NCBI GenBank assembly: GCA_016713135.1
Contig: JADJPR010000022.1
Span: forward strand, 320,861 to 384,860
From: Rhodanobacteraceae bacterium
Lineage (GTDB): Bacteria > Pseudomonadota > Gammaproteobacteria > Xanthomonadales > SZUA-5
Direction: 5' to 3'
DNA: 64,000 nt
Under the pieces are notes generated by a model, which saw only the letters and a program-made list of their open reading frames with translations, did not search any database and was not told the origin of the DNA. Position numbers and translations under genes: made by a program. Position 1 is the stretch's first letter. Each line of letters starts with the position of its first letter. Of this stretch, positions 48,023 through 64,000 are shown piece after piece.

Positions 48023-48042
48023 CCCAAGGGCGCCCGCCGTGC

Positions 48043-48384
48043 TCAAGCGACCTCCATGGCGCTCAGGCGCAACTGCTCGCCGTCGTCGATCCGCAGCGCT
48101 GACCCGCCACACTCCGGGCAGGCGTCCTGGCGGCTGGTGATGGCAACGCCATGGCCGCAGTCGAAGCACCAGGCGCGGCCGGGAATGATCTCGATGTCCA
48201 GGTGTGCGCCTTCCGCCGGCCCGCCGCGTGCGGCGCAGTCGAAACAGAAAACCAGTGCGGCCGGCTCCACCTGCCCGAGAGCGCCGATCGCCAGTTGCAC
48301 GCGCAGCACTCGTGTCGCGCCTTCAGCCTGAAGGTGCTCGGTGAGCAGGTCGACCAGCGACAGGCAGAGCGACATCTCGTGCAT
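48043..48384 (-). CDS. hypA: hydrogenase maturation nickel metallochaperone HypA/HybF
   Basis: MHEMSL N-terminus plus a CxxC...CxxC zinc site (CFDCGH...CPECGG). Confidence 0.85.
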   Translation of the reverse strand: MHEMSLCLSLVDLLTEHLQAEGATRVLRVQLAIGALGQVEPAALVFCFDCAARGGPAEGAHLDIEIIPGRAWCFDCGHGVAITSRQDACPECGGSALRIDDGEQLRLSAMEVA

Positions 48385-48396
48385 GGCAGCCCTGGC

Positions 48397-48900
48397 CTAA
48401 GTCTCGGCGCGATCGGGGACCACCGGCGCCATCGGGCGCCATCCTGCAAGGAACGCACGCCGACCCGGGCTGTCCACGCGCGGCACCGCCGGCTTCGCGG
48501 CGAGCACCTGCGCCAGCACCCCCCGTGCCTCGTTGCAGGCATGCGCCTGCGAGCCGAAGGCGTGCATCGGCGAATGCAGCGAGTGCGCCCAGTAGGCGCC
48601 GATGCCCTCGTCCCCACCGTAGACGAATCGCCGGGAGCCACCCGGCAGCGGAATGCCCCGCGCCTGGCCGAAACGCGTCGGATCCACCGGTGCCTGCTCC
48701 AGTGGCAGCAGCATCAGGTTCATGAACCAGGGCGTGACCAGCACGCCGATCAGGTCCGACTCGTCGAAGTGCGTGAACCCGCAGGCTTCCACCGACAATT
48801 GCGCGTTGTAGAACGGCAGCTCGCGCATCCGGGTATCCCCGATCTCGCGGAAATGCACCGCAAGCGCGCAGACCCGGAGGTCACTGGCGTGGTTGTTCAT
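48397..48900 (-). CDS. hybE: HybE/HupJ-like hydrogenase assembly chaperone
   Basis: Position in the operon plus GVLVTPWFMNLMLLP. Its start overlaps the hypC stop (tcat at 48897-48900). Confidence 0.6.
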   Translation of the reverse strand: MNNHASDLRVCALAVHFREIGDTRMRELPFYNAQLSVEACGFTHFDESDLIGVLVTPWFMNLMLLPLEQAPVDPTRFGQARGIPLPGGSRRFVYGGDEGIGAYWAHSLHSPMHAFGSQAHACNEARGVLAQVLAAKPAVPRVDSPGRRAFLAGWRPMAPVVPDRAET

Positions 48901-49133
48901 CGCGCTTCCTCCATCAAGACCTGCAGGCGGGCGTAGAGCTCGAGCATCTCGCATGCCTCCGCAGGTGTCAGTTTCGCCAGCGCGTGACGTTGCGCCTGCA
49001 CCGCCAGGTAGTCGCCCACGTTCACGGGCTCATCCAGCAGGTGCAGCAAGACCGGCAATTGCGTGCCGCCGCGCTCGACCACGGCATGCCCCGGACCCAG
49101 TGCGACCACCTGCATGGGCACGCTCAGGCACAT
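48897..49133 (-). CDS. hypC: HypC/HybG/HupF family chaperone
   Basis: The MCLSVPMQVV N-terminus (essential Cys2) was chosen inside ORF 48897..49436. 78 aa. Confidence 0.85.
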   Translation of the reverse strand: MCLSVPMQVVALGPGHAVVERGGTQLPVLLHLLDEPVNVGDYLAVQAQRHALAKLTPAEACEMLELYARLQVLMEEAR

Positions 49134-49621
49134 CAGGCCACCTCCAGCGCCGGCACGGCGGCGACGCCCAGCCGCCGCAGGCGCGCGAGCACGCACTCCA
49201 GCGCTGCCTCGCAAGCGCGCTCGCCGATGGGTGTCAGCTCCGTGCCGAGTTCGATCCCGGCAGGTTCGACCGCCACCAGCGAAAGTCCCGCGGGCAAGGC
49301 ATCCATCAGCGCGGCCGCGGCGAGCAGGTCCGACAGGCCGATCTGGTGCGGCGAGATGCGTTGCTGGAAGAAAGCGGGCACCGCGGCGCCCTGAAACTCG
49401 TGGATTTCGCCGGGTGGACCGTCGAGCCGCGCGCAATCGACGATCAGCAGGTGCTCGCAGGCGGCCACGTCGTCGAGCAACACCATCCCCGAGGTGCCGC
49501 CGTCGAGCACCTGCACCTGCGCCGGCAGGCGCCAGCGGGCCTGCAGGCGTTGCACGACATGCACGCCGATGCCCTCGTCCTGGAGCAGGATGTTGCCGAT
49601 GCCGAGCACCAGGATGTCCAC
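49133..49621 (-). CDS. hybD: hydrogenase maturation endopeptidase (HybD/HupD)
   Basis: The GTG start lies 2 nt after the large-subunit stop. Sequence reads VDILVLGIGNILLQDEGIGVHV...DGGT. Confidence 0.85.
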   Translation of the reverse strand: MDILVLGIGNILLQDEGIGVHVVQRLQARWRLPAQVQVLDGGTSGMVLLDDVAACEHLLIVDCARLDGPPGEIHEFQGAAVPAFFQQRISPHQIGLSDLLAAAALMDALPAGLSLVAVEPAGIELGTELTPIGERACEAALECVLARLRRLGVAAVPALEVA

Positions 49622-49623
49622 CT

Positions 49624-51331
49624 TCAGAAGGCCTTGACTGAAACGATCGGGCGTCGCTGCGGATCGCTCATGTGGATCGCGCAGGCGATGCACGGATCGA
49701 AGCTGTGCACCGTGCGCAGTACCTCCAGCGGCAGCTCCGGATCCGCCACCGGATTGTCCAGCAGCGCTGCTTCGTAAGGCCCCGGGCGATCCTGGTCGTC
49801 GCGCGGGCCGGCGTTCCAGGTCGACGGAACCACGGCCTGGTAATTGCGGATCTTGCCGTCCTCGATCACCACCCAGTGCGAGAGCACGCCACGCGGCGCC
49901 TCGTGGAAGCCAAATCCACGGATCTCGCCCTTGGGGAACACAGGCCGGTTCCAGGTGTCGAAATCGCGCTTGGCGATGTTCGCCATCAGCAGCTTCCACT
50001 GGTTGACCAGGCTGTCGTGCAGCACCGCGCAGCGCACCGCCCGCGCAGCGATGCGACCGATGGTGGAATGCAGCGCGGACAGCGGGATCTGCGCGCCGGC
50101 GACCGCACTGGCCTGCGCCAGCAACTTGTCCAGATGGCGCTTGGTCGACGCGTGGCCGGCCGCTGCCATCGCCAGCACATTGGCCAGCGGGCCCACCTGC
50201 ACGCGTTCGCCGTGGAAGGTCGGCGCCTTGATCCAGGAGTATTTGCCGTCCTCCTGGAAGTCGGTGTAGTTGGGCTCGGTCTGGCCTTCCCAGGGATGCA
50301 GCGAAGGCTGGTCGCCCGCGTAGCGATACCAGGAATGCCCGACTTCCTCCTTCACGCCGTCGCGGAAGAAGGCATCCTGGTAGTCATCGATGGCGCGGAA
50401 CTTCGCGAGGTCGCCGTCCGGGATGTAGCCTCCTGGCAGTTCGAACTGCGTCCCCATCTCGTCGAGCGGCAGGTCCGGTGCCGACAGATAGTGCGTGATG
50501 CCCTTGCCATAGCCGGTCCAGTCCGCGTACAGCGCACCCACCGCGGCGACGTCCGCCATCATCGCGTTGTGCACGAAGTCGCCGAGTTCGTCGATCAGCG
50601 CCTTGACTGCGTGAAGGCGCTCCAGCGTCAGCGTCGACTGGCTGTCGGGGTTGATCGCATTGGAGACGCCGCCGACCGCGAGATTCTGGATGTGCGGCGT
50701 CTTCGCGCCGAGGATGGAGACGATCCGGTTGGCGCTGCGCTGCACTTCCAGCGCCTGCAGATAGTGCGCGGCCGCCATCAGGTTGGCATCCGGCGGCAGT
50801 TTCATCGCCGGGTGCCCCCAGTAGCCGGAGGCGTACACCCCGAGTTGGCCGCTGGCGACGAAGGTGCCCAGTCGATCGCGCGCCGCCTGCATCTGTTGCA
50901 CCGAGTTGCCCTTGTAGTCCGACAGCGACTGCGCCAGCGTTGCCGCGCCGCCTCGGATCGCCCTGCAGCGAGGACACGATGTCCACCCAGTCCAGCGCCG
51001 CCAGGTGGTAGAAGTGCACCAGGTGATCGTGGATGCCGTGCGCGCTGATGATCATGTTGCGGATGTACTGCGCGTTCAGCGGCACCGGCAGCTGCAGCGC
51101 GTTCTCCACCGCCCGCACCGAGGCCAGCGCGTGCACCGTGGTGCACACGCCGCAGATCCGCTGGGCGTAGACCCAGGCATCGCGCGGATCGCGCCCGCGC
51201 AGGATCAGCTCGATGCCGCGCCACATCTGGCCGGAGGACCAGGCCTTGGTCACGCGGCCGCCGTCCACCTCGACATCGACCCGCAGATGACCTTCGATGC
51301 GGGTGATGGGATCGATCACGACACGGGTCAT
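49624..51331 (-). pseudogene. hybC: [NiFe] hydrogenase large subunit (HybC-like); one frameshift as sequenced
   Basis: N-terminal ORF 50384..51331 carries [11 protein letters not shown]-terminal ORF 49624..50901 carries DPCIACAIH followed by a 15-aa cleavable tail. The frames switch within about 50941-50957. An AGGAG ribosome-binding site is present. Confidence 0.9.
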
Positions 51332-51344
51332 GGGAGACTCCTGA

Positions 51345-52502
51345 TCAGGCGTGCGCGGGCTGCCGCACCGGGGCGTGCAGGACTGGGAAGAGCTTGATGA
51401 CGACCAGGTAACCGAGGATCTCGAAGGCGATCATGCCCAGCGTGACCAGGATCTCCTGCACCGACGGGAAGTACGTATAGCCGGCGACCGCCGGCGTGTA
51501 GCCGACCAGATAGGCGTTGAAGCGATAGACGATCGCGAACAGCAGCAGCGCCAGCGCGGCCAGGAAGGTCCAGACCTCATCGCGCCGCGCCGCGGGCGAC
51601 AGGAATCCCACCGCAGCGAACAGCGCCAGCGCATTCTCGGACCAGAAGCTCGCCGCCAGCGGCGTCAGTTCCAGCGCGTCGCCAAGCGCGTCGCGCCACA
51701 GCAGGTCGGCCCAGCGCAGCAGCAGCCAGCCGGCCAGCAGCCAACCGATGACGCTCGACAGCCGTGCCAGCATGTGATGCTCCGACGCCAGGCGGAAGCT
51801 CTTGGTGACCACCGTGGCCTCGAACACCACCAGCGCATAGCCCATCGCCAGCACCGAGCTGACGAACAGCAGCGGCAGCCACGGCGTCAGGTACAAGGGC
51901 GACAGCTTGTGCCCGACCACCAGCAGGATCGACCCAAGCGAAGACTGGTGCATGAATGGCAGCAGGATGCCGATCGAGATGACCAGCCACATGACGCGGG
52001 CGATGCGCTGGCGCCATTTCTCGAGACCGAAGCGCTCCAGCACCATCGGCGAGTTTTCGACGAACAGCAGCAGGGTGTACGCACTGACGCACAGGCCGGT
52101 CTCCAGCATCACCGAGCTGAAATTCCAGTGCCACGGCAGCAGCAGGTTGTAGAACTGCCACCAGCGGCCCATGTCGATGATCGCGGCGGAGCCTGCCAGC
52201 ACGTACCCGAAAAGGCTGCTGACCAAGGCGGGCCGCATCAACGGGTGGTAGCGACCCTGGTTGAACACGTAAATCAGCATGGCCATGGCAAAGCCGCCGC
52301 AGCCGAGCGAACTGCCGATGATCAGGTCCCAGGTCACCCACAGGCCCCAGGGATACCCCGCACTCAGGTTGCTGACGTCGCCCAGGCCGTAGATGAAGCG
52401 CTTCAGCAGCACGATGCCCGCAATCGAGGCCAGCAACCCGAGCACCAGGCTGAAAGGCGTGAACAGCGAAACCCCACGCAGCCGCTGCGGATGACCGGAC
52501 AT
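51345..52502 (-). CDS. hybB: NrfD/HybB-type integral membrane subunit
   Basis: About 10 transmembrane helices. Located between the FeS subunit and the large subunit, as in E. coli hybOABC. Confidence 0.85.
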
Positions 52503-52503
52503 C

Positions 52504-53511
52504 TCAGTGCTCCTCGTGGTCCTGCGCGTCGATGCCGGGCTTGTTGCGTCGAACGACCCAAGCCAACCCGAACAGCGCCACCGCAGGCGCCAGCAAGTAG
52601 TTGTAAAGTTTGTGCTGCAAACCCTCGACGAAGCGCACCGGCGCGTCCGGCCCGAGCGTGGGCAGGCCGAGTTTCTCGAAGGGCACGGCGCTCAGGTAAC
52701 GCACCTGGGTGCCGCCGACCTCGGTCTGGCCATAGACATGCTTCTGGTAGAGCGCAATCGCCGCCTCGTGCATCGGCCGGTCGCCGCGGATATCGCCGCG
52801 CGGGAACTGATGCAGGGTGCCAGGCTCCGCGGCCAGGCGTTGTTCGGCCTCTGCCTGCAGATCGGCCACCGGGCCAAACAGCGAAGCACCCGTCGGACAC
52901 ACGTCGCAGCATGCCGGAATGCCTCCCTGCGCCTGCAAGTGCGCGCACATCTGGCATTTGTTGATCTGCCCGAAAGGTTTGCCCAGATCGAACTGCGGCA
53001 CGCCGAAAGGACAGCCGTAAGAGCAGTAGCGGCATCCCAGGCAGGCATCGGCGTCGTGGGTCACGATGCCTGTGACCGGATCCTTGATCATCGCGCCGAC
53101 CGGGCACACCGAGACGCAACTGGCATCCACACAATGCAGGCAGTTGCGCTTGACGAAGGCAAAACCGTCGGTTGCACGATCCTTCACCGAGGCATCGCCG
53201 TCGCGATAGACCTTGATGACATTGAGGGTGACGCCATCGAGGTCCTCGGCCAGCGCCCAGGTGTTCGCGGCGTTCCAGTCGGCCAGCGGCGCTGGCGTCG
53301 CGCCCGATTCGACTCCGTTGGCGGCGCGGCAGGCCGACACGCAGGCCTGGCAGCCGATGCACAGGGTCGAATCGAACAGCATGCCGAGCGCCCCTTCGGG
53401 CATTGCCTTGGGTTCCCGCGAGAGCGCCTGCGCAGGCGTCGATGCCAGGCACGCCGCCGTCGCCGCTCCGGCGCCCGCGCCGGTGAGGAACTGTCGCCGA
53501 GAGAGTGTCAT
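52504..53511 (-). CDS. hybA: 4x[4Fe-4S] ferredoxin-type subunit HybA, Tat-exported
   Basis: Tat signal: MTLSRRQFLTGAGAG. Multiple CxxCxxCxxxC(P) motifs and a C-terminal transmembrane helix. Confidence 0.85.
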   Translation of the reverse strand: MTLSRRQFLTGAGAGAATAACLASTPAQALSREPKAMPEGALGMLFDSTLCIGCQACVSACRAANGVESGATPAPLADWNAANTWALAEDLDGVTLNVIKVYRDGDASVKDRATDGFAFVKRNCLHCVDASCVSVCPVGAMIKDPVTGIVTHDADACLGCRYCSYGCPFGVPQFDLGKPFGQINKCQMCAHLQAQGGIPACCDVCPTGASLFGPVADLQAEAEQRLAAEPGTLHQFPRGDIRGDRPMHEAAIALYQKHVYGQTEVGGTQVRYLSAVPFEKLGLPTLGPDAPVRFVEGLQHKLYNYLLAPAVALFGLAWVVRRNKPGIDAQDHEEH

Positions 53512-53512
53512 G

Positions 53513-54685
53513 TCACACCTCCCGCCCGGACTTCTTCTCCGCCTTGTCGCGCTCTTCCGCCATGTTTCGGGTGAACATCGCGCCGGCCCCGAGCGCCACG
53601 CCGATCACGCCACCCACCAGCGCCGCGGCGCCGGGGCTTGCGCCCTGTCCGCGTGCGCCGTCGACCGACGGATACAGCGATGGCGGCGTCTGCGACACCA
53701 AGTCGGCCAGCGCATGGATCGGCTTGCTGAAACCGACACCCTTCTCGGTGCAGCCAAAGCAGGGTGCGCCGATGCCGACCGGCCAGTTGCCCTCCCCCAC
53801 GTCGCCGAAGCCGATCGCCGGGCAGTTCGCATGCGTCTCGGGCCCCTTGCAGCCGATCTTGTACAAGCAGAAGCCCTGGCGGTGCCCGGCGTCGCCGAAT
53901 TCGAGCGCGAAGCGCCCGGCGTCGAAATGCGGCCGGCGCTCGCAGTTCTCATGGATCAGGCGGCCGTATGCGAACTTCGGCCGGTTGTGTGCATCCAGCG
54001 CCGGCGCTTCGCCGAAGGTCAGGAGGTGCAGCACGGTCGACAGGAAGTTGTAGGGATTGGGCGGACATCCCGGGATGTTGATCACCGTCTTGCCGGGGAT
54101 CACCTCCTGCGTCCCCACCGCGCCGGTCGGGTTCGGATGCGCCGACTGCACGCCGCCCCAAGCCGCGCAGGAACCGATCGCAATCACTGCCGCAGCGCCC
54201 GCCGCCGCCTCGCGCACCAGTTCCACCTGAGTGCGGCCGCCGACCTTGCAGTAGATGCCACCCTCGGCCATCGGCGTGCCGCCTTCGGTGACCAGGATGT
54301 ACTTGCCGCGGTATTCCTCCATCACCTTGTGCTTGTGATCGAGCGCCTGCTTGCCGGCGCCCACGCACAGAGTGTCGTGGTAGTCCAGCGAGATGACGTC
54401 GAGCAGCAGGGACTCCAGCGTCGGGTGGTAGGCGCGCAGCAAGGTCTCTGTGCAGCCGGTGCACTCCTGGCCGTGCAGCCAGATCACAGGGGGACGCATC
54501 GGATTCTCGGCCGCGAGCGCCATGCGCACACCCGCCGCCTGGCTCAATCCCATCGTGGCCGCCACGCCCGCACAGAACTTGAGCATCTGCCGTCGCGTCA
54601 AGCCGCCGAGCAGGCTGATCGGGAGATCCGCCTGTGGGTCCAGCAGCCCTGCGAACGAATCCTGCCGTTCCACGTCGATGCTCAT
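53513..54685 (-). CDS. hybO: [NiFe] hydrogenase small subunit, Tat-exported
   Basis: GGGGAG ribosome-binding site. Tat signal: LTRRQMLKFCAG. Proximal-cluster motif: WLHGQECTGCTE. Also GSCAAWGG, and a C-terminal transmembrane anchor. Confidence 0.9.
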   Translation of the reverse strand: MSIDVERQDSFAGLLDPQADLPISLLGGLTRRQMLKFCAGVAATMGLSQAAGVRMALAAENPMRPPVIWLHGQECTGCTETLLRAYHPTLESLLLDVISLDYHDTLCVGAGKQALDHKHKVMEEYRGKYILVTEGGTPMAEGGIYCKVGGRTQVELVREAAAGAAAVIAIGSCAAWGGVQSAHPNPTGAVGTQEVIPGKTVINIPGCPPNPYNFLSTVLHLLTFGEAPALDAHNRPKFAYGRLIHENCERRPHFDAGRFALEFGDAGHRQGFCLYKIGCKGPETHANCPAIGFGDVGEGNWPVGIGAPCFGCTEKGVGFSKPIHALADLVSQTPPSLYPSVDGARGQGASPGAAALVGGVIGVALGAGAMFTRNMAEERDKAEKKSGREV

Positions 54686-54888
54686 GGCGCCACTCCCCGA
54701 CCGAAGCTGCCCCGGGGCATGCGAGCCGGGGACGACCGCAACATTGCGAGACATCGTGGGCGCGCTGCAGGCGGCCGCATTGATCCCAATCAAACCCGCG
54801 GACTTTGACGAATGTCATGGCGCACCCCGGCTTTAGGGTGGTCAATGACGCGCATGGCCGGCATTCGCGTCGAGTCGGGAGGTGTACC

Positions 54889-55329
54889 GTGGCCAGCGCA
54901 TCCAGGGTGGTGATGCTCGCGGCGGCGATCGCTGCTGTGACTGGCGCCGCGTGGCTGGCGGTCGTCGATCGCGCGCCCGAGGCAGACACCCTGCGCCGGG
55001 TCGATGGCCTGCGCTACAACACCGTGTCACCGTCGGAACATGGCGCGCTGGCGCCGTGCGCGGTCTGCCATCGACTCAGCGCCGCGGGCGCCGAGGGCCC
55101 GACGCCCTCGCTGCGGAACATCATCGGCAGCGCCAAAGGCGCTTCGCGCTGGTTTGGTTATTCGCCTGCGCTGGCCACGGCCGGCGGGACATGGACCGCG
55201 GAGGAGATCGATGATTATCTCGCCGACCCGGTGGCCTTCCTCCCCGGTACCAGCAAGACCCTGTCGCAGGTACGCGACCCCGAAGAGCGCCGGCGCATCG
55301 TCGATGCCCTGCGTGAGCTCACCCCATGA
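54889..55329 (+). CDS. membrane-anchored c2-like c-type cytochrome lacking the usual Met ligand
   Basis: GGGAGG (54877-54882) precedes a GTG start. An N-terminal transmembrane segment is followed by a CAVCH heme site. The region that aligns with PGTKM reads PGTSKTL. Confidence 0.7.
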   Translation: MASASRVVMLAAAIAAVTGAAWLAVVDRAPEADTLRRVDGLRYNTVSPSEHGALAPCAVCHRLSAAGAEGPTPSLRNIIGSAKGASRWFGYSPALATAGGTWTAEEIDDYLADPVAFLPGTSKTLSQVRDPEERRRIVDALRELTP

Positions 55330-55345
55330 AAGAGGCTTGATCACC

Positions 55346-55957
55346 ATGTCCGCGACGACTGGATTCTCGATGAAGCGCGTGCTGACCGCCCTGTTGCTGG
55401 GAGCCACTGCACTGCCCGCGCCGCTACTTGCGCATGCTGGCCCCGGCACCCACGACGGGTTCCTGGCGGGGATGCTGCACCCGGTGGCAGGCCTGGACCA
55501 TGTCCTGGTGATGCTCGGCGTCGGTGTCCTCGGCGTCGCGGTTGGCGGCCGAGCCCGCTGGTCGCTGCCGCTGGTGTTCGTCGCGAGCATGGCCTTGGCA
55601 ACGCTGGCGGGCATTTCCGGACTGGCCGGTTCGCAGCCAGCCGAGCATCTGATCGCCATCAGTGTGTTGGCCATCGGCGTGCCGCTCGCCCTGGCAACAC
55701 GTTTGTCGCTGCCGGCCGCAGCGCTGCTGGTCGCCCTGTGCGCCGTGGTACACGGACACGCCCATGGTGTCGAAGCCGCGGCTGGTGTCGCCGTTGGGTC
55801 CTATCTCGCCGGCATGCTGATCGCGACTTCGCTCCTGCACGCAAGTGGTGTACTGATCGCCGCGGGCCTGCGCCGGCCGATCCTCGCCGGAGTGCAGCCG
55901 ATCCGCTTGCTGGGAGTCGCGATGGTGGTCGCCGGCATGGTGCTCACGATCACCTGA
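55346..55957 (+). CDS. hupE: HupE/UreJ family nickel transporter
   Basis: The signal peptide is followed by HAGPGTHDGFLAGMLHPVAGLDHVL and AVVHGHAHG motifs. An alternative start lies at 55370. Confidence 0.85.
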   Translation: MSATTGFSMKRVLTALLLGATALPAPLLAHAGPGTHDGFLAGMLHPVAGLDHVLVMLGVGVLGVAVGGRARWSLPLVFVASMALATLAGISGLAGSQPAEHLIAISVLAIGVPLALATRLSLPAAALLVALCAVVHGHAHGVEAAAGVAVGSYLAGMLIATSLLHASGVLIAAGLRRPILAGVQPIRLLGVAMVVAGMVLTIT

Positions 55958-55986: not shown

Positions 55987-56461
55987 TCAGGCCCAGTCGG
56001 GGGGGGGAGTAGAGAAGCAGATACACCGCAAGTCCGGACGTCGAGACATACATCCACAGCGGCCAGGTCCAGCGCGCCAGGGCACGGTGGCTCGCGACCC
56101 GTTGCCGCAAGCCGCGCGCCGCCGTCATCGCGATCAGCGGCAAGGACATCGCCGCGAGCGTCACATGGCTGATGAGCAGGGTGTAGTAGACCGGACGGAT
56201 CCAGCCCTGGCCGCGGAAGCGGAAGATCGGCGCGCCGTAGTGGTAGGCGATGTACGAGACCAGGAACAGGGCCGAGACCGCAAGCGCGGCGAGCATCGTG
56301 CGCCGGTGCGCTTCGACCTGCTTCGCCTTGATCTGCCTGCGCGCCAGCAGCAACAGGACCGCACTCAGGCCATTCAGGCTCGCGTTCAGGTGCGGCAGCC
56401 AGCTGACGTAGTCCACTTGGGTTCCGCGTTGCGCCAGGATGGCCGCAAGCTCGCAGGACAT
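55987..56461 (-). pseudogene. DUF420 (CtaM-like) membrane protein; 3' end frameshifted at a G9 run
   Basis: As sequenced, the ORF (55424..56488) runs antisense through hupE. Removing one base from the 9-nt homopolymer at 55999-56007 gives ...VYLLLYSPPDWA followed by a stop at 55987. Confidence 0.6.
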
Positions 56462-56527
56462 CGCAGCCGAAGCATTGATGGCAGTCAAGCACCCGGCTGA
56501 CCGCCGTCAAGGCAGCGGATCCACTCG

Positions 56528-57178
56528 ATGCCTACGCTGGAATCCATGAAGCCCGCTCGACATGCGCTGATCCTCACGGCCGCTGCCGCATTGGCCCTGC
56601 TCTGGCTGGGCCGTGCCAACCAGGACAGCGACCTTTGGGAACAGGCACCGGCCGAGGTTCAGGCCGTCCTGTGGCCGGTGCCGCGACCGGTCGCCGGGTT
56701 CAACCTGGTGGACCAGCACGGCCAGTCGTTTGCCGCCGAAGACCTGCGCGGACACTGGAGCCTGATGTACTTCGGTTACCTGCAGTGCCCGGATGTCTGT
56801 CCCACCACCCTGCAGGCACTGCGCGGTGTCCAGCGCTTGCAAGCCACTCAACCAGATGCGCGCGTCACCCGGCATGTCTTCGTCAGTGTCGATCCCGCCA
56901 ACGACAGCCCGGAACGGATCGCTGCCTACCTCGGATACTTTGGCGATGCCTTCACCGGCCTCGCCGGCAATCCGGCGGAACTGCAGAAGCTCACCGACTC
57001 GCTCGGCGTGATCCACGCCGAGCATGTGGACCAGGCCGGTGTGCGCAGCATCGACCACACCACCGCGATCATCGTGGTGGATCCTGAAGGCAGGGGTGTG
57101 GGTGCCCTGACCGCGCCGCACGACCCTGCATCCATGCTGCAGCGGCTGCGCGCACTGCAGGAGTACCTCTCGCGCTGA
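56528..57178 (+). CDS. SCO1/SenC family copper chaperone
   Basis: Thioredoxin-like CPDVCP motif in ...WSLMYFGYLQCPDVCPTTL..., plus a conserved His in SIDHTTAIIVVDPEG. Confidence 0.8.
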   Translation: MPTLESMKPARHALILTAAAALALLWLGRANQDSDLWEQAPAEVQAVLWPVPRPVAGFNLVDQHGQSFAAEDLRGHWSLMYFGYLQCPDVCPTTLQALRGVQRLQATQPDARVTRHVFVSVDPANDSPERIAAYLGYFGDAFTGLAGNPAELQKLTDSLGVIHAEHVDQAGVRSIDHTTAIIVVDPEGRGVGALTAPHDPASMLQRLRALQEYLSR

Positions 57179-57183: not shown

Positions 57184-58294
57184 TCAGACCGCCGGCCGGC
57201 CGCCCCGGCTGAGCAGCCACAGCACGGCGCTCAGCAGCACCACCGCCCCGCCCTGGTGCAAGGTGCCCAGCCAGACCGGCACGTGCAGCAGCAGCGTCGC
57301 GATCCCGAGGCTCACCTGGAGCAGCACGGCGAGCAGCAGCCAGTGGGCGGCACGACGCTGCTGCGCGTCCAGCACCGGGCTGCGTCGCCATACCCACCAT
57401 ATGCCGGCGACGATGCCGAGCGCGCCGAGCGCCAGCACGCGGTGCACGAACTGCACCGTCACCGGGTTCTCGAGGAAGTTCAGCCACCAGGGATCGAAGG
57501 TCCACATGCCCGGTGGGACCAGGTGCGTGCCCATCAGCGGGAAAGTGTTGTAGATCAGCCCGGCGCGCATGCCCGCCACGAAGGCACCGAACACGATGGT
57601 CACGGCCAACCAGCCCAGCAGGATCTTCGGGGTGCGCCCGAGCGCTTGGGCGGTCGGCGCGACCGGCCACAAGGTGCGCACCGCGAGCCAGAACATCGAG
57701 GCATAGATCAGCAGCGCAAGAGACAGATGCGCCGCCAGGCGGTAGTGGCTGACTCGCGGAATGTCGACCAGCCCGCTCTTGACCATGAACCAGCCCATGT
57801 AGCCCTGCGCCGCGCCGAGCGCCAGGATGCCGACCAGCGGCCAGCGCAACTGCGGCGGAATCGCCCGGCGTAGCCAGAACCACAGCAGCGGCAGCGCGAA
57901 CATCAGCCCGAGCACGCGCGCCAGCAACCGGTGGCCGTATTCGTACCAGAAGATCAGTTTGAAGTCGTCCAGGCTCATGCCCCGGTTGACCTTGGTGTAC
58001 TGCGGGCTCTGCCGGTACTTTTCGAATTCCGCCTGCCAGGCCTCGTCGCCCATCGGTGGCAGCACCCCGGTCACCGGGCGCCAGTCAACGATCGACAGGC
58101 CCCGACTCGGTCAGGCGCGTGGCGCCACCGAGCATCACCAGGGCCAGCAGCGTCGCGCAGCACACGATCAACCAGATGCCGATCGCCCGCTCCTGCGCGC
58201 GCTCCACGTCAGCATGCCCATCACCATCGTCGCCACGATCCACTCCGGAAACCCCGCCGGATACCAGCATCGCCCCGGCCACGCAAGCTGTCAT
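57184..58294 (-). pseudogene. ctaA: COX15/CtaA heme A synthase; one frameshift as sequenced
   Basis: N-terminal ORF 58085..58336 (...LGGATRLTESG) and ORF 57184..58074 (VTGVLPPMGDEAWQAEFEKY...) join if one C is removed from cccc at 58100-58103. That restores TESGLSIVDWRPV. The start is uncertain. Confidence 0.8.
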
Positions 58295-58422
58295 CCGTGA
58301 AGGCCGGCGATCTGGCGCACGGTTGACCTGTGTCAATTACACGCGGGTACCCGCGGGCAGCAAATACGGGCCGATTGTCGGCCGTTGCCGGCATGCACCT
58401 ACACCCTTGGGGAGGCGACCCG

Positions 58423-58575
58423 ATGAGCGATAACGACGAAAACGAAAAGGTGCCGATGATGCAGCAGTTGCTGGATAACCCGTTCCTGCTGCTGTTCCTC
58501 GGCGTGCTGGTTCCCATGGTGATCTATACCCTGTGGGGTGTCATCGACATCCTGACCATTCCAGCGGCGAAGTAA
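58423..58575 (+). CDS. 50-aa single-transmembrane peptide, possible subunit IIa-like component of the oxidase
   Basis: GGAGG lies 7 nt upstream. Sequence: MSDNDENEKVPMMQQLLDNPFLLLFLGVLVPMVIYTLWGVIDILTIPAAK. It sits directly upstream of subunit II. Confidence 0.5.
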   Translation: MSDNDENEKVPMMQQLLDNPFLLLFLGVLVPMVIYTLWGVIDILTIPAAK

Positions 58576-58604
58576 ACCGATATCCACTACTGGGGAATAT
58601 ATCC

Positions 58605-59145
58605 ATGAGCGCCATTTTACCGCCGGCCGAACGACTCTGGTGGAAACATCCGCTGGACCGGGTCGAAGGCACCTGGATCGCGATTGCATTCGTCTGGTGC
58701 ATGATCATGTTCTTCATGATGATCTACTGGCACGCATACGGTAAACAGAATCTTTCGACTGAAACCTACAAGACCACGCCGGAAATGTTTGCGGCGAAAG
58801 CCCAGAAAATGGTCGACCACTACACGGTGCGCAACGAAACCGACATGCAAACGCCCGTGGTGGCGCCGCCGGCAGGCAGCGATGTCTACCTGATCGCGCG
58901 CCTGTGGAACTTCTGGCCGATCCTGGAACTGGAAAAGGACAAGACCTATCGCCTGCACCTGACCTCGATGGATTACAACCATGGATTTCTCGCTGCAGCC
59001 GGCCAACATCAATATCCAGATCGTGCCCGGCTACGAGCATGTGATCACGGTCACGCCCAACCAGAGCGGCACCTTCTCGGTGGTATGCAACGAGTTCTGC
59101 GGAATCGGCCATCACATGATGGTCGGGCGCATTTACGTCAAGTAA
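58605..59145 (+). pseudogene. heme-copper oxidase subunit II (CuA cupredoxin, no cytochrome c domain); one frameshift as sequenced
   Basis: ...LTSMDYNHGF / SLQPANINIQIVPG...VVCNEFCGIGHHMMVGRIYVK. There is an extra T in the ttt run at 58986-58988. CuA ligands H, C, E, C, H and M are all present. Confidence 0.85.
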
Positions 59146-59157
59146 CGGAGACCGGCC

Positions 59158-60860
59158 ATGTCCCAGGCAACAACTTACCGGACCTGCCCGCGTTCCGGGC
59201 TGCAGTTCGAATCCCAGGCTGAAAAACTGATGATCGCCAACGCCGTGGCGGCGGTGGTGTTCCTGCTGATCGGCGGCATCCTCGCCGTCGGCGTGGTGCT
59301 GACGCGCTGGCCGTCGATCCACTGGCTGGAGGCGGACACCTTCTACAAGGTGCTGACCGCGCACGGCATCGACATGCTGATCTTCTGGATCATCTTCTTC
59401 GAAATCGCGGTGCTGTATTTCTGCTCATCGACTTTGCTGCGCTGCCGGCTGGCCACGCCCAAAATAGCCTGGCTGGCGTTTGCGCTGATGGTGATCGGCG
59501 CGGTGGTCAACAACATCGCCGTCTACCAGGGCGGTTCCAGCGTGATGATGACCAGCTACGTGCCGATGATGGCGGCGCCGAGTTTCTACCTCGGCCTGAT
59601 CCTGTTTGCGGTGGGTGCCCTGATCGGGTGTTTCGTGTTCCTCGGCACACTGGTCGTCGCCAAGCGCGAGAGGACCTACCAGGGATCCGTGCCGCTGGTG
59701 ACCTTCGGCGCGATCACGGCCTGCATCATCGCGGTATTCACCATCGTTTCCGGCGCGATCATCCTGATCCCGACCTTCCTGATGTCGGTCGGTGTCATCG
59801 AGCACGTCGACGCGCTGATCTACCGCACGATCTGGTGGGCCTTCGGTCACTCGTCGCAGCAGATCAACGTCGCCGCGCACATCTCGATCTGGTACGCGGT
59901 GGCGGCGATTGCCTTCGGCGCGAAGCCGATGAGCGAACGCGTCTCGCGCGGCGCCTTCCTGCTCTACATCCTGTTCCTGCAGCTCGCCAGCGCGCACCAT
60001 CTGCTTGCCGATCCGGGCGTCAGCACCGAGTGGAAGGTCGTCAACACCAGCTATTTCATGTACTTCGCGGTGCTGGCCTCGATGATCCACGGCCTGACCA
60101 TTCCCGGTGCGATGGAAGTGGCGCAGCGCGCCAAGGGTTACAACAAGGGCCTGTTCGAATGGCTGCGCAAGGCGCCCTGGGGCAATCCGACCTTCTCCGG
60201 CGTGTTCATCTCGATCATCGGCTTCGGCTTCCTCGGCGGCATCTCCGGCGTGATGATGGGCACCGAGCAGCTGAACATGATCATCCACAACACGATCTAC
60301 GTACCGGGCCATTTCCACGCCACTGTGGTGGTCGGCACCACGCTGTCGTTCATGGCGCTGACGTACTTCCTGATCCCGGTGCTGTTCAAGCGTCAGATGA
60401 TCAACCCGGGCTGGCCAAGTGGCAGCCGTACCTGTTCGGCCTCTCGATGTACTTCTTCTGCCTGGTCATGATGGGCGCCGGCACGCTCGGCGTGTCCCGC
60501 CGTCACTGGGACATGGCCTTCAGCGGCAATGCGCTCGCGTATGAATGGCCGGGCGCGGCCTACCTGATGATGGGGCTGGTGGGCATCGCCGGCATCGCGG
60601 CCATCGTCGGTGGCGCGATCTACATCTACATCACGGTCGGTTCGTTGCTGTGGGGCAAGAAGCTGGAGAGCGGTGCATCGAGCAAGGAGACCACGCCGAT
60701 CCCGCTGCAGATCCCGTCCTCGGTCGCGGTGCAAAGCTACGGCTCGATGGGCTTCGCGGCGCCCGGCACCTTCGTGCTGGCGATGGTGTTCCTGGTCTCC
60801 TTCGTCCTCTACTACTTCATCAACTGGAAGTATCTGTCGACGCTGTGGGGGCTGAGCTGA
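59158..60860 (+). pseudogene. B-family-like heme-copper oxidase subunit I lacking the cross-link Tyr; one frameshift as sequenced
   Basis: Conserved motifs: LTAHG, WWAFGHSSQQ, SAHHLLADPG and HNTIYVPGHFH. The frame switches at about 60410-60411 (ggctgg where ggcctgg is expected), joining ...LFKRQMINPG to LAKWQPYLFG.... Confidence 0.85.
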
Positions 60861-61002: not shown

Positions 61003-61905
61003 ATGACCATGAGCACCGCCGTCGCCTTCGCCGATCGATCCCTGCCGGCACTCGCCCGCGAGGTGCTCGGCCTGTTCAAGCTGCGCATCGGCGTGCTGAT
61101 CACGGTGACCGCGATGGTCGGATTCGTGGCCACGCCGGGACATGCAGCGAAAGGTTGGCAGGTGCTGGTACTCGCATTGTCCACCCTGGTTGCCGCCGCC
61201 GCGGCAGGCGCCTTCAACCAGTATCACGAGCGCGAGATCGACCGCCTGATGGTGCGCACGCGTGGCCGGGCATTCGCCAACGGCACCTTCTCCGCCAGTC
61301 CGGGCTGGTTGCTGCTGATGGCCTCGATGCTGGCCAGCAGCCACCGCGGGCGCCTGGTTGCTGGTCAACCCGCTGGCGGCTGCCTTCGTTTTCCTCGGCG
61401 CTTTCTTCTACGGGGTGGTCTACACCGTGTGGCTGAAGCGGCGCAGCTGGAGCAACATCGTCATCGGCGGATTGTCCGGCAGCTTCGCCGTACTCGCGGG
61501 CGCGGCGGCGTCCGATCCAGCCCTCGGCCCGCTGCCCTGGTCGCTGGCGCTGGTGCTGTTCCTGTGGACCCCGCCGCATTTCTGGAGCCTGGCGATCGCC
61601 TTCCGCGACGACTACGCCGCCGCCGGCATCCCGATGCTGCCCGTCGTCGTCGGCACGCCACGCGCGGCGCGCATCGTGCACTGGAGCACGCTTGCACTGG
61701 TGGCGTCTTCGCTGTTGCCATGTGCTTTCGGCGCGGGGTGGATCTACTTGTCGGCGCCGCGGTGGGCGGCGGTCTGTTCCTGTACCGCTCGTATCGGCTG
61801 GCGCACATGCCGACGCGGCAGACCGCGATCGCCTGCTTCCTCGCGTCGCTGGTGCAACTTTGCCTGGTGCTCGGCGCGATCTGCCTCGATGTCGCGCTGA
61901 GATGA
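61003..61905 (+). pseudogene. ctaB: protoheme IX farnesyltransferase (heme O synthase); two compensating frameshifts as sequenced
   Basis: The frame-1 N-terminus (...GAFNQYHEREIDRLMVRTRGRA...) switches at about 61330-61345. The middle part, in frame 2, reads LVNPLAAAFVFLGAFFYGVVYTVWLKRRS...LWTPPHFWSLA. It returns to frame 1 at about 61748-61752 (VGAAVGGGLFLYRSYRL...). Confidence 0.85.
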
Positions 61906-62763
61906 ACCCGATGCGCAGCGGCCCGCGGCGTCGAGCTGGCCTTTGGGGGGTGCTGGCGCTGCTCGTTTGGCTTCCCTGCATGGCGCAGGAAGCGGTGACT
62001 GTCGAAGCCGCGCAGGCCTTCGGCCTGGACCAGGAACAGGCCATCCGCGCCAGCCAGGCGGCCGTCGGCATGACCCCCGGCAACTACCAGCTTGCGCAAC
62101 CGCGAGGGCGTGGCCATCCCGCTGTCGCAGTTCCGCGGCAAGCCGCTGCTGGTGAACTTCATCTACACCGGTTGCTTCAAGGTCTGCCCGACCAGTTCGC
62201 GCGCCCTCAAGCGCGCGGTCGATGCGATGCGCGACCGCTTCGGCCACGACCAGTTCAACGTGGTCAGCATCGGCTTCAACCAGCCCACCGATTCACCGAT
62301 GGCCCTGCGCGAGTTCGCCGCGCAGCAGCGCATTGTCGATCCGAACTGGGAGTTTCTCAGCCCGCGCGAGGATGACGTCGCTGCGCTGGCGCGCGATTTC
62401 GGCTTCAGTTTCATCGCCACGCCGATCGGCTTCGACCACACCCTGCAGGTCAGCATTCTCGACCCTGCAGGACGGATCTCGACCCAGGTGTACGGCGATG
62501 CCTTCGCCGCCGACTCGCTCGGCGAACCGCTCAAACGCCTGCTCGCCGGAACCCTGGTCAGCGAAACTGCGAGCATCGCCGACCTGGTCGACAAGGTGCG
62601 CATCCTCTGCTCGGTGTACGACCCGGTCACCGGCAAGTACCGGGTCAACTACGCGATGTATCTGGAGATCGCCGGTGGACTCACCTTCATCCTGGCGATG
62701 CTCGCCTTTGCCGCCAGCGAGTTGCGCGCGCGGCGTGCGGCCGCGCGGCCGCGCGCCGGCTGA
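61902..62763 (+). pseudogene. SCO1/SenC-like protein with a C-terminal transmembrane helix; one frameshift as sequenced
   Basis: The start overlaps the ctaB stop (atga at 61902-61905). The signal peptide and ...GNYQL join RNREGVAIPLSQFRGKPLLVNFIYTGCFKVCP... if one T is removed at 62092-62093. Confidence 0.75.
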
Positions 62764-62774: not shown

Positions 62775-64000
62775 ATGGCCGAGGTCCAGCCGACCTGGTC
62801 CCGCCTGGAACGCCGGCTGGACCGCTGGTTCCCGCCCGGCCGCAATCCCCTGCTTCACCTGGGCAGCCTCGCGTGCCTGATGCTGGCACTCGTCCTGCTC
62901 AGCGGGATCTACCTGTTCATCGTCTTCGACACCTCGGCAGCCGGCGCCTACCGCTCCATCGAGTCGCTGGCGCGCGAACAGCCCCTGGCGGGGGGCTGGC
63001 TGCGCAGCCTGCATCGCTACGCGGCGGACGCGATGTTCCTGTTCACCATCGCGCACCTCGCACGCGAGTGGGCGCTGGGACGTTACCGCCATTTCCGCCG
63101 GGTGACCTGGTGGACCGGCATCCCGCTGCTGCTGTTCCTGTACCTGGGCGGCATCGGCGGCTTCTGGCTCAACTGGGACCAGTTGGGCCAGTACTCGGCG
63201 CTCGCCAGCGCAGAGCTGATCGATGCCCTGCCCTTCCTCGGCGCCGGACTCAGCCGCCAGTTCATAGGGGTCGCAGCGGTGAGCGACCGGCTGTTCTCGC
63301 TGCTGATCTTCGTGCACATCGGGGTCGCGCTGCTGCTGGTGTTCGGCCTGTGGTTCCATTTGCAGCGACTCGGCTGGCCGGCGGTGCTGCCGCCGCGACG
63401 GTTGACCATCGGCTCACTCGCCATGCTGGGTCTGCTCGCGCTGCTGCAGCCCGTGCTCAGCCAGGTGCCTGCCGACCTGGCGCATGCCCCGACGACACTC
63501 GCCTTCGACTGGATCCTGCTGCACCTGCACCCGCTCGCCGAGGCCCTGACACCGGGCTGGGTCTGGCTGCTCCTGCTGATTGCCTTCGTGATCCTGGTGT
63601 TGCTGCCTTGGCGCGGTGGCAATGCGGCCCCGGTCGCGGCCGTTGTCGACCCCGACCACTGCAACGGCTGCCGCCGCTGCACGGTCGATTGTCCGTTCGG
63701 GGCGATCTCGCTGACCCTGCACCCGAACGGGAAAGCCGGCCAGCAACTGGCCGTGGTGGACGCCGAGCGCTGCGCCAGTTGCGGCATCTGCGCCGGTGCC
63801 TGCCCCACGTCCACGCCTTTCCGCCGCGACCAACGCCTGACGGCAGGCATCGACATGCCGCAACTGCCGGTGGACGCATTGCGCCAGCGCGTGCGCGCGG
63901 CGCTGGACGCCCTGCCGGACATGCACAAGGTGCTGGTGTTCGGATGCGACCAGGGCGCGGACCTCGCCGCCATGCGCAGCTCCGGGGCGGCCGGCATCAG
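62775..64000 (+). CDS. diheme cytochrome b domain fused to a 2x[4Fe-4S] ferredoxin and an MvhD/FlpD-like domain (3' end outside the window)
   Basis: Hand translation from the ATG at 62775 runs to the window end without a stop; this ORF is not in the supplied track. His pairs spaced 14 residues apart occur in LHRYAADAMFLFTIAHL and VHIGVALLLVFGLWFH. Ferredoxin motifs: CNGCRRCTVDCP and CASCGICAGACP. These are followed by VLVFGCDQGADL. Confidence 0.75.
   Translation, partial: MAEVQPTWSRLERRLDRWFPPGRNPLLHLGSLACLMLALVLLSGIYLFIVFDTSAAGAYRSIESLAREQPLAGGWLRSLHRYAADAMFLFTIAHLAREWALGRYRHFRRVTWWTGIPLLLFLYLGGIGGFWLNWDQLGQYSALASAELIDALPFLGAGLSRQFIGVAAVSDRLFSLLIFVHIGVALLLVFGLWFHLQRLGWPAVLPPRRLTIGSLAMLGLLALLQPVLSQVPADLAHAPTTLAFDWILLHLHPLAEALTPGWVWLLLLIAFVILVLLPWRGGNAAPVAAVVDPDHCNGCRRCTVDCPFGAISLTLHPNGKAGQQLAVVDAERCASCGICAGACPTSTPFRRDQRLTAGIDMPQLPVDALRQRVRAALDALPDMHKVLVFGCDQGADLAAMRSSGAAGI

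Follow-up and report, generated by a model that had tools for sequence, protein, structure and literature searches.

A probable eNOR-family nitric oxide reductase annotated as cytochrome c oxidase in a Rhodanobacteraceae bacterium

The window analysed here is a stretch of 64,000 nucleotides from a Rhodanobacteraceae bacterium, and it carries the structural genes of a heme-copper enzyme on the forward strand. A small ORF (58423..58575) encodes a single-helix membrane peptide of 50 amino acids. It is followed by the genes for subunit II (58605..59145; 179 amino acids once repaired; Pfam COX2, E = 3.3e-6) and for the catalytic subunit I (59158..60860; 567 amino acids once repaired; Pfam COX1, E = 5.8e-64). 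An earlier note on this DNA had named the features lying between 58423 and 60860, and all of them were recovered at their coordinates. The small ORF is kept at the same position in 82/82 related loci, with the core QQLLDNPFLLLFLGV..P..VY.LWGV.DIL, and a small ORF likewise lies 5' of subunit II in homologues from Thermus, Thermomicrobium and Defluviimonas. No match for the peptide was found in Pfam or NCBIfam. It is probably a third subunit, and the proposed analogy is with subunit IIa of ba3 oxidase.

Subunit I shares 99% identity with an intact protein of 567 amino acids (P0001). Its best matches among solved structures are 7deg_A (E = 3.6e-47), another ba3-like chain that its entry names cytochrome c oxidase subunit I, followed by Thermus ba3 (E ~1e-43). 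The six canonical histidines claimed for it all map to ba3 counterparts in the HMMER alignment: the heme ligands H69 (LTAHG), H385 and H387 (PGHFH) correspond to H72, H384 and H386, and the metal ligands H231 (WWAFGH), H280 and H281 (SAHHLL) to H233, H282 and H283. The same alignment bears out the proposed replacement of the cross-link tyrosine by glutamine. The ba3 residue Y237 aligns with Q235, and the ba3 motif GHPIVY reads GHSSQQ here. Gln235 is no sequencing accident, since GHSSQQ[IV]N is read in 82 of the 82 related loci. As for subunit II, it consists of one transmembrane helix and a cupredoxin domain, and after repair it can be aligned with Thermus ba3 subunit II over the full length (E = 3.6e-16). 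Its CuA site is complete, as had been claimed, with the H of HGF and then C, C, H and M of CNEFCGIGHHMM matching the ba3 ligands. The CxxCH motif is absent from its sequence, in line with the proposed lack of heme c.

The genes around the structural pair point to heme A and copper assembly. A divergent ctaA/COX15 gene for heme A synthase lies on the reverse strand (57184..58294; Pfam COX15-CtaA, E = 4e-91, with an N-terminal fragment in another frame). Directly downstream of subunit I, on the forward strand, are ctaB/cyoE for heme O synthase (61003..61905; Pfam UbiA, in two frames), a SCO1/SenC-type copper chaperone gene 3' of ctaB (61902..62763; Pfam SCO1-SenC, E = 1.3e-11), and a gene fusing cytochrome b, two 4Fe-4S motifs and an MvhD/FlpD-like part (62775..64000; Cytochrome_B, E = 1.3e-20; Fer4). 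The last ORF ends at the window edge and is incomplete here. Upstream of the operon lie a second SCO1/SenC gene on the forward strand (56528..57178; Pfam SCO1-SenC, E = 5.5e-36) and a DUF420 membrane protein gene on the reverse strand (56010..56488; Pfam DUF420, E = 5.8e-40). The context described earlier, namely ctaB, SCO/SenC, a membrane redox ORF, ctaA and DUF420, is thus backed by Pfam matches throughout. Further upstream, a small c-type cytochrome with a CAVCH motif is encoded on the forward strand (54805..55329; Pfam Cytochrom_C, E = 0.0047, under the curated cutoff). It is a possible candidate for the electron donor of the enzyme.

Much of this neighbourhood recurs elsewhere. The ctaB gene is located 3' of subunit I in 70/80 related loci, the downstream SCO gene is present in 69/80, and the cytochrome b/4Fe-4S protein in all 63 of the related loci that reach far enough. 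The latter is an accessory redox protein conserved as part of the module; its intact homologue in one related locus (L002) also has FlpD, and both this protein and ctaB belong to the eNOR operon of Ferrigenium (Ferrigenium preprint). The second, upstream SCO gene has a match in 17 of the 65 related loci that reach far enough, at low identity (median 32%), and a DUF420 neighbour was also found in L002 and in another related locus, L001. The order of the module, i.e., small ORF, subunit II, subunit I, ctaB, SCO and cytochrome b/FeS with ctaA alongside, agrees with published eNOR operons and persists in the related loci. The likeness to the norSY-senC-orf1 clusters of sNOR that the earlier note had drawn is therefore a loose analogy only, as the gene order fits eNOR operons.

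Two more proteins are encoded in related loci, namely a heme-copper oxidoreductase (HCO)-like paralogue with no HH pair and a cytochrome b-2Fe2S-FAD-NAD protein. It is conceivable, though doubtful, that in Beta- and Gammaproteobacteria the eNOR core is part of a fixed module of nine genes, the products of which perhaps form one dedicated supercomplex. These nine may be the small peptide, subunit II, subunit I, ctaB, SCO, the cytochrome b-4Fe4S-MvhD-like protein, a 167-aa protein, the HCO-like paralogue and the cytochrome b-2Fe2S-FAD-NAD(P) protein; the window covers the first six. Such a supercomplex, if it is real, could feed the enzyme from quinol or NAD(P)H, bypassing bc1 and cytochrome c. 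Alternatively, it might link NO reduction with reverse electron flow, a speculation made in the Ferrigenium preprint.

Putative regulatory sites were found in the same region. An FNR/Dnr-type palindrome, TTGACctgtGTCAA, is located at 58323..58336, between the divergent ctaA and eNOR genes and 100 bp ahead of the small ORF. Further FNR-type boxes lie at the start of the DUF420 gene (56475-56488) and by the gene for the small c-type cytochrome (54780-54793). The pattern TTGAYN4RTCAA has 5 matches in the window versus 0.04 expected from shuffles. Moreover, 48/82 related loci have a box with at most one mismatch in the 250 nt ahead of the small ORF, compared to 11/410 control stretches. The putative FNR/Dnr-type site suggests that the operon may be controlled by oxygen or NO. 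Between 54.5 and 64 kb, a sigma-70 promoter scan gave no match and terminator-like sites did not exceed chance level. Counting against the NO-reductase reading, in Accumulibacter the homologous 'ba3' genes cluster with genes that are apparently FNR-repressed, and their transcript level is nearly flat over the anaerobic/microaerobic cycle.

Taken together, the locus very probably encodes a nitric oxide reductase of the eNOR family, a heme-copper branch derived from the B-type (ba3-like) oxygen reductases. This family was described in 2008 (Hemp & Gennis 2008). Its R. marinus member, which contains heme As, was characterised in 2024 and reduces NO but not O2 (Murali et al. 2024, PMC11214002). 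The residue at the position of the cross-linked tyrosine separates the families: it is Y in the oxidases, E in cNOR and qNOR, N in sNOR and Q in eNOR (PMC8756737 Table A4). Schwartz et al. number the eNOR glutamine 'Gln-323' in their alignment (PMC8756737). At this locus, that position is held by Q235. All six heme and binuclear-metal histidines, a CuA cupredoxin subunit II free of heme c and the K-channel-like residues, including the equivalent of Ser309, are also present, and the capacity for A-type heme is provided genetically by ctaA and ctaB, which flank the structural genes.

Phylogeny points in the same direction. Two neighbour-joining trees of 25-28 sequences, from both of which the R. 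marinus eNOR sequence is absent, recovered a Gln-carrying clade with 97-98% bootstrap, apart from the ba3-type oxidases. The second tree was anchored on plasmid-borne homologues of named isolates (T. thermophilus, T. roseum and Defluviimonas). There the clade has nine members, takes in the T. thermophilus, T. roseum, Defluviimonas and haloarchaeon homologues, and carries Gln in 9/9 at 98% bootstrap. Repaired and placed in a tree, as the earlier note had asked, subunit I falls outside the ba3-type oxidase clade. Within the Gln clade, Lys replaces the low-spin heme His in the Thermus homologue, a variant known for 'some eNORs' (Murali et al.), and the gene of this homologue adjoins two others, one annotated as nitrite reductase and one for an Rrf2 regulator. 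Placement in eNOR would thus draw on the family-specific residue, on the architecture of the operon and on the clade that carries Gln, with the R. marinus enzyme outside these trees.

The diagnostic Gln235 and the all-Gln clade argue for the NO-reducing, B-family-derived type that had been proposed, and they also favour eNOR in the choice among eNOR, sNOR and bNOR that had been left open. The sNOR family, which has Asn, no Ser309 equivalent and a conserved Glu at another place in the channel, was rejected on Gln235 and Ser308. The bNOR family (Bacillus azotoformans qCuANOR) is restricted to Bacillales (Murali et al.). It also has Asn where Gln stands here, and the nearest relatives of the present protein are Gamma- and Betaproteobacteria. 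A gNOR would show His -> Asp and no CuA ligands, whereas three His and a complete CuA are found. Likewise, nNOR, cNOR and qNOR have Glu, which serves as the fourth FeB ligand, and nNOR adds His/Met ligation of the low-spin heme, cNOR a heme c subunit and qNOR the use of quinol, as opposed to Gln235, His/His heme and a CuA subunit here. A B-family ba3-type O2 reductase would keep the cofactor Tyr of GHP[IVL]VY, which is Gln in this protein, and would not lie outside the ba3 clade.

NO-reductase activity is predicted for the enzyme. A periplasmic donor, probably a c-type cytochrome, would deliver electrons to CuA of subunit II, from where they would pass via the low-spin heme (His69/His387) to the binuclear site, made up of the high-spin heme (His385) and a metal on His231, His280 and His281. 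The two-electron reaction 2 NO -> N2O would not need the His-Tyr radical cofactor, the Tyr of which is replaced by Gln235, with the conserved Gln234 and Asn237 beside it. Protons would probably be taken up from the cytoplasm via a K-type channel comprising subunit II Glu21 and Thr314, His311, Ser308, Tyr246 and Ser259. S308 and H311 are invariant among the five Gln-carrying sequences of one alignment (A2). E21 (DRVEGTW) looks like Glu15 of ba3 subunit II, the K-path entrance, a resemblance judged by eye, as the alignment starts at residue 24. With proton uptake of this kind, NO reduction could conserve energy. A-type heme would be supplied by ctaB and ctaA, and copper would be loaded by the SCO proteins.

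An eNOR-family enzyme could also serve something other than respiratory NO reduction, e.g., microoxic NO detoxification, or a different substrate or electron route involving its linked partners. The wider window holds a [NiFe] hydrogenase cluster and housekeeping genes, and no nir, nos or nar gene was found within the 64 kb. The partners are unusual (cytochrome b-4Fe4S-FlpD, the HCO-like paralogue without HH pair, cytochrome b-2Fe2S-FAD-NAD protein), the R. marinus eNOR turns over only 0.68 NO per second (PMC11214002), and the literature leaves room for detoxification or a generalised role (PMC8756737; Ferrigenium preprint). Such a role nonetheless seems unlikely. NO reduction is the sole activity shown for the family (PMC11214002), the Thermus homologue has its nitrite reductase neighbour, and under denitrifying conditions the eNOR genes of Ferrigenium are its most abundantly transcribed heme-copper oxidoreductase genes (Ferrigenium preprint).

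The integrity of the genes has to be considered as well. A single frameshift had been claimed; a frameshift is indeed present, but there are two, one per subunit. Compared to the intact homologue L001, subunit II has one extra base near 58985, and in subunit I a C has dropped out of a CCCC run near 60405. By the same comparison, ctaA carries two single-base indels (~58098 and ~58207), as does ctaB (~61337 and ~61750). In the downstream SCO gene, a signal-peptide-like N-terminus (MNPMRSG...) at 61902 lies in another frame than the SCO domain, which suggests a frame change near 62090. With both subunits, ctaA and ctaB frameshifted, the operon might be a decaying pseudogene cluster from which this organism makes no enzyme. 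This appears quite improbable, as the same kind of break is found elsewhere in the window, where aconitase is spread over three frames and the large subunit of the [NiFe] hydrogenase over two. As these genes, ctaA and ctaB are likewise interrupted by single-base indels, both subunit frameshifts are probably sequence errors and not gene decay. Pervasive decay reaching a gene of the TCA cycle is unlikely, so that sequence-wide error offers the simpler account. Furthermore, neither in-frame stops nor larger deletions are present, and, indels aside, the eNOR genes diverge from L001 almost only at third codon positions. Identities at codon positions 1/2/3 are 98.2/99.6/88.5% for subunit I and 98.9/100/90.6% for subunit II, and this drop mainly at the third position indicates strong purifying selection on both subunits.

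It is highly improbable that the enzyme is a genuine O2 reductase with a redox-active Tyr from another helix, like cbb3 (C-family): one tyrosine, Tyr299 (motif N296-T-S-Y299), which the ba3 alignment puts on helix VIII and above the serine of the K-path, is kept only in the Gln235-carrying clade, and every database source calls the protein cytochrome c oxidase, but those names are automatic annotations, Tyr299 would point ~180 degrees away from the channel-facing Ser308 by helical phase as judged from residue spacing, the models of these families have no migrated Tyr (Murali et al.), the Gln stands at the position of the metal-binding Glu of cNOR/qNOR (PMC8756737), and the purified R. marinus enzyme showed no O2 reduction with several donors (PMC11214002).

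Relatives of the predicted eNOR are encoded in at least 585 species genomes, and subunit I is 83-96% identical to the best 80 of these relatives. Among the matches listed, the nearest are from Gamma- and Betaproteobacteria, and several of the closest database relatives are MAGs with isolate names suggesting wastewater or sludge. Look-ups of the protein clusters returned 'cytochrome c oxidase' names only. A literature search on eNOR in Steroidobacter, Dokdonella, Casimicrobium and Thermomonas found no paper joining these terms. Accessory genes in the related loci reach just 57-65% identity, compared to the 83-96% of subunit I. That the entire cluster was recently transferred from Beta- to Gammaproteobacteria or the reverse is thus unsupported, and the core enzyme seems simply very constrained. 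The GC content dips over the locus (0.61 vs 0.67) because of the hydrophobic amino-acid composition. A foreign origin was rejected, as the GC3 of subunit I (0.88, with GC1 0.53 and GC2 0.45) is like that of its neighbours.

As an eNOR, the protein is an ordinary member of an already described family. Enzymology gains nothing new from it, since the family, the diagnostic residue, the operon and the activity have all been published. The main value lies in the correction of an annotation, as an eNOR is filed in the databases as a cytochrome oxidase. Under that label, an automated pipeline would count an extra oxidase and no NO reductase. The eNOR identity alters the predicted nitrogen metabolism of this Rhodanobacteraceae bacterium, which becomes a possible producer of N2O, perhaps during aerobic or microoxic denitrification.

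The ba3 cytochrome c oxidase is an O2 reducer, and the present protein shares with the Thermus enzyme (PDB 1EHK, 1XME) the six His ligands, the CuA subunit II and a small single-helix upstream ORF. Its K-path is kept at 4/6 positions, with Tyr248, Ser261, Ser309 and Thr315 corresponding to Y246, S259, S308 and T314. The two proteins nevertheless fall into clearly separate clades in both trees and differ by the changes Tyr237->Gln235, Val236->Gln234, Trp239->Asn237, Thr312->His311 and Tyr244->Ile242. A Tyr-retaining, archaeal GHxxQY clade is the sister of the Gln clade in the neighbour-joining trees (85-94% bootstrap) and has Gln234, Asn237, Tyr270 and His311 in common with the present protein. 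In contrast, it keeps the cross-link Tyr and is therefore presumably an oxygen reductase; it probably represents the K-family O2 reductases of the Hemp/Murali classification. K and eNOR families cluster together (FIND preprint), and the sister position fits this published closeness.

Among the NO reductases, cNOR and qNOR share the predicted chemistry and a non-Tyr residue four positions past the first metal His. They differ in having Glu, a heme c subunit or quinol donor and no CuA, and they have no conserved cytoplasmic proton channel (Murali et al.). The sNOR and bNOR types are B-family-derived with a CuA subunit and no Tyr, as here, and sNOR adjoins SenC/SCO, but both have Asn at the Tyr position. 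B-family-like K-channel residues with the Ser309 equivalent are kept in eNOR, whereas sNOR is without Ser309 (Murali et al.). Published eNORs and the present enzyme have in common these K-channel-like residues, Gln for the cross-linked Tyr, the metal and heme histidines, a CuA subunit II and ctaA/ctaB neighbours. The Ferrigenium operon has the same order of subunit II, subunit I, heme O synthase, SCO and cytochrome b/FeS. The low-spin heme is His/His here and His/Lys in the eNOR-like homologue of Thermus.

Judged by its residues, the enzyme encoded at 58423-60860 belongs to the eNOR family, i.e., the ba3-like heme-copper NO reductases in which Gln replaces the cross-linked Tyr. Three genes in the same orientation, each with a plausible ribosome-binding site, make up this region: an ORF of 50 aa with one hydrophobic helix (58423-58575), subunit II (58605-59145; 179 aa once repaired) and subunit I (59158-60860; 567 aa once repaired). 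The repaired subunits I and II matched the Pfam families COX1 (E = 5.8e-64) and COX2 (E = 3.3e-6), respectively. No NCBIfam equivalog reached the cutoff in the search with the gene products of this region. The repaired subunit I shares 99% identity with P0001, an intact protein from the database. Among solved structures, the top match was 7deg_A (E = 3.6e-47), a chain deposited under the name cytochrome c oxidase subunit I, and the Thermus ba3 chains came next (E ~1e-43). For the 50-aa ORF, no family match was obtained. It is kept in all 82 related loci, and in the homologues from Thermus, Thermomicrobium and Defluviimonas a counterpart precedes the subunit II gene. This ORF probably encodes a third subunit, so far missed by annotation, comparable to subunit IIa of ba3.

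The indels were located against L001, an intact homologous contig from a Rhodanobacteraceae MAG (GCA_016788105.1). Subunit II carries one extra base near 58985, and subunit I lacks one C from a CCCC run near 60405. Single-base indels also occur in ctaA (57184-58294) and ctaB (61003-61905), two in each. The downstream SCO gene, ending at 62763, probably contains one as well. Furthermore, aconitase is split over three frames (39899-42544) and the [NiFe] hydrogenase large subunit over two (49624-51331); a GC3 frame scan reproduced both sets of frame switches. Indels aside, nearly all differences between the eNOR genes and L001 fall at third codon positions. Identities at codon positions 1, 2 and 3 are 98.2, 99.6 and 88.5% for subunit I, and 98.9, 100 and 90.6% for subunit II. 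The simplest reading of these comparisons is region-wide sequence errors, at about one indel per kilobase relative to L001, rather than decay specific to eNOR.

The earlier note had described retained heme and metal histidines, a Tyr replaced by Gln, and a subunit II with a complete CuA site and no heme c domain; all three observations were confirmed. When the alignment was mapped to native ba3 numbering, H72, H233, H282/H283 and H384/H386 of ba3 corresponded to H69, H231, H280/H281 and H385/H387 of subunit I, and Y237 to Q235. Neighboring residues have changed too (V236 to Q234, W239 to N237). The motif GHSSQQ[IV]N is read in 82/82 related loci, and the Gln is therefore a fixed feature of the lineage. 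Over its whole length, the repaired subunit II can be aligned with that of ba3, with all CuA ligands matched, and its repaired junction HGFSLQ pairs with HGFHVE. No heme c motif was found in subunit II. Along the K-path, the equivalents of Tyr248 (Y246), Ser261 (S259), Ser309 (S308) and Thr315 (T314) are kept, while T312 is replaced by H311 and Y244 by I242.

An exhaustive search with HMMER, covering 1.84 billion cluster representatives, returned 1439 relatives at E <= 0.001. Full-length representatives, with the R. marinus eNOR sequence left out, were aligned and placed in two neighbor-joining trees with bootstrap. The earlier note had proposed repairing the frameshift and placing subunit I in such a tree. 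The repaired protein falls in a single clade of proteins that carry Gln in the Tyr position (97-98% support). The members of this clade are the window protein, close proteobacterial homologues, a metagenomic protein of 52% identity and one from the haloarchaeon Natrarchaeobius. The second tree adds plasmid-borne homologues from the named isolates Defluviimonas sp., Thermomicrobium roseum DSM 5159 and Thermus thermophilus TTHNAR1, at 62, 44 and 44% identity, respectively. The sister group is an archaeal GHxxQY clade in which the Tyr is retained (85-94% support), in agreement with the published clustering of eNOR with the K-family oxidases. The ba3-type enzymes form a clade of their own. A third related heme-copper oxidase (HCO) clade (P0178, P0191 and P0226 in the protein alignment A1; 100% bootstrap) includes a Dehalococcoidia MAG. 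Its members have FH(V/I)(N/Y)HY at the first histidine of the binuclear-site metal, LYHL in place of the HH pair, and Tyr in place of the high-spin heme ligand His (YFH, YLH, YVH).

At the Tyr position, O2 reductases have Y, cNOR and qNOR E, sNOR N, and eNOR Q; a single proton channel is predicted for eNOR (PMC8756737 Table A4, after Hemp & Gennis 2008). The K channel of eNOR and bNOR is B-family-like and includes Ser309, which sNOR lacks (Murali et al. 2024, PMC11214002). Because Gln is found together with the retained K-path residues, including the Ser309 equivalent, the protein is assigned to eNOR and to no other NOR family. The earlier reading of an NO-reducing, B-family-derived type, for which no family had been chosen, is thus supported by the residue key, the K-path and the Gln clade. 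Alternatively, the enzyme could be an oxidase whose redox-active Tyr is supplied from elsewhere, i.e., Tyr299, which is conserved in the Gln-carrying clade only. The R. marinus enzyme, the sole eNOR with direct biochemistry, argues strongly against this: its turnover was 0.68 NO per second at 25 °C, and with a range of donors it did not reduce O2 (PMC11214002). It carries heme As in both heme sites and was expressed under microoxic conditions only (PMC11214002). The remaining candidates were rejected: sNOR and bNOR, whose active site is that of sNOR (PMC11214002), for N against Q235 and, in sNOR, for the missing Ser309 against S308; gNOR, which has Asp for a metal-binding His and no CuA (PMC11214002), against all His and a complete CuA here; and cNOR/qNOR (E) and O2 reductases (Y) by the residue key. 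As an eNOR, the window enzyme should, by homology with that of R. marinus, reduce NO and not O2. Electrons would enter via CuA, and protons would probably be taken from the cytoplasm via the K-type path, making NO reduction electrogenic, as has been predicted for the family.

The Thermus TTHNAR1 subunit I reads GHGAQQVN, and its second low-spin heme histidine is replaced by Lys (HFK), exactly the His/Lys variant reported for "some eNORs" (Murali et al. 2024, PMC11214002). Its genes (small ORF, subunit II, subunit I) lie at 11307-13668 of L083, the locus on plasmid 4, a megaplasmid, and adjoin annotated genes for nitrite reductase, a multicopper oxidase, cytochrome c, cytochrome P460 and an Rrf2-family regulator. 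This operon is annotated as a cbb3-type oxidase.

Relatives are widespread. A word-indexed search gave at least 8000 matches at E <= 1e-10, the best 120 being 86-99% identical. Among species-representative genomes, at least 585 carry a gene for a relative; the best 80 of these (83-96% identical) span Rhodanobacteraceae and other Lysobacterales, Steroidobacteraceae, Woeseiaceae, many Burkholderiales and Rhodocyclaceae. Median identity across the related loci is 88% for subunit I versus 57-65% for accessory genes. Between Gamma- and Betaproteobacteria (L003-L082, further related loci, compared with the window), subunit I shows unusually high conservation. At third codon positions, too, identity to L001 is higher for core genes (0.89-0.91) than for flanking genes (0.59-0.79). 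Any one of three causes could account for this: strong constraint, codon bias, or recombination of the core genes.

Five perfect matches to the FNR/Dnr-type palindrome TTGAYN4RTCAA occur in the window (16969, 38380, 54780, 56475 and 58323), versus 0.04 expected by chance. Three lie in or beside the eNOR cluster: 54780 overlaps the start of the listed hydrogenase small-subunit ORF, 56475 that of the DUF420 ORF, and 58323 (TTGACctgtGTCAA) is located 100 bp 5' of the small ORF. A box with at most one mismatch is found 5' of the small ORF in 48/82 related loci versus 11/410 control stretches. The box at 38380 adjoins a PCuAC copper-chaperone gene (37868-38353). FNR sites were also predicted upstream of the Accumulibacter "ba3" operon, whose genes responded little and were grouped with FNR-repressed genes (Camejo et al.). 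eNOR occurs in many Accumulibacter strains, and transcriptomes of this kind have been cited for its high expression (Murali et al. 2024, PMC11214002). The distribution of boxes suggests a small oxygen- or NO-responsive regulon over copper and heme delivery and eNOR.

No nir, nos or nar genes were found within the 64-kb window; apart from the eNOR cluster, it carries housekeeping genes, a PCuAC copper-chaperone gene and, together with hyp genes and HupE, a [NiFe] hydrogenase cluster. The uptake-hydrogenase cluster (43925-55957) directly adjoins the eNOR cluster and encodes HypF, HypB, the large subunit, a HybB-like cytochrome b, a HybA-like FeS protein (the latter two judged from sequence only), the small subunit and HupE/UreJ. 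NO reduction could conceivably be coupled to the oxidation of hydrogen. At L002, another related locus, the upstream genes shown are different ones, among them those for a Crp/FNR-type regulator and coproporphyrinogen oxidase; of the hydrogenase cluster, no more than a HypF fragment appears, at the edge of the stretch.

The eNOR genes are flanked by ctaA/COX15 (57184-58294, minus strand), ctaB (61003-61905), SCO1/SenC genes upstream (56528-57178) and downstream (61902-62763), a DUF420 gene and a cytochrome b-4Fe4S fusion, which starts at 62775 and is cut at the window end. Among related loci extending far enough, this cytochrome b-Fer4-FlpD gene is kept in 63/63, ctaA is found in only 10/65, and the upstream SCO protein has a match, of low identity, in 17/65. 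ctaA is present in many eNOR operons, and the Magnetospirillum eNOR neighborhood includes both ctaA and ctaB (Murali et al. 2024, PMC11214002). In L002 (15602-19571) and 60 related loci, three more genes follow past the window end: a 167-aa protein, a 527-aa HCO-like paralogue and a cytochrome b-Fer2 (2Fe2S)-FAD-NAD(P) fusion. In the paralogue, the heme histidines and the first histidine ligand of the binuclear-site metal (GGGHALQF) are retained, and PYAYLAH replaces the HH pair.

The family is already known, biochemically characterized and very widespread, and the locus is a further member of it; the practical value of the assignment lies in annotation correction. The Ferrigenium straubiae eNOR operon comprises eNOR II, eNOR I, heme O synthase, sco1, a scaffold protein, a cytochrome b/[Fe-S] protein and a cytochrome b/[Fe-S]/FAD/NADH protein (2026 preprint). 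The HCO-like paralogue may be its "eNOR scaffold protein", and the same arrangement is seen in the related loci, running on beyond the window end.
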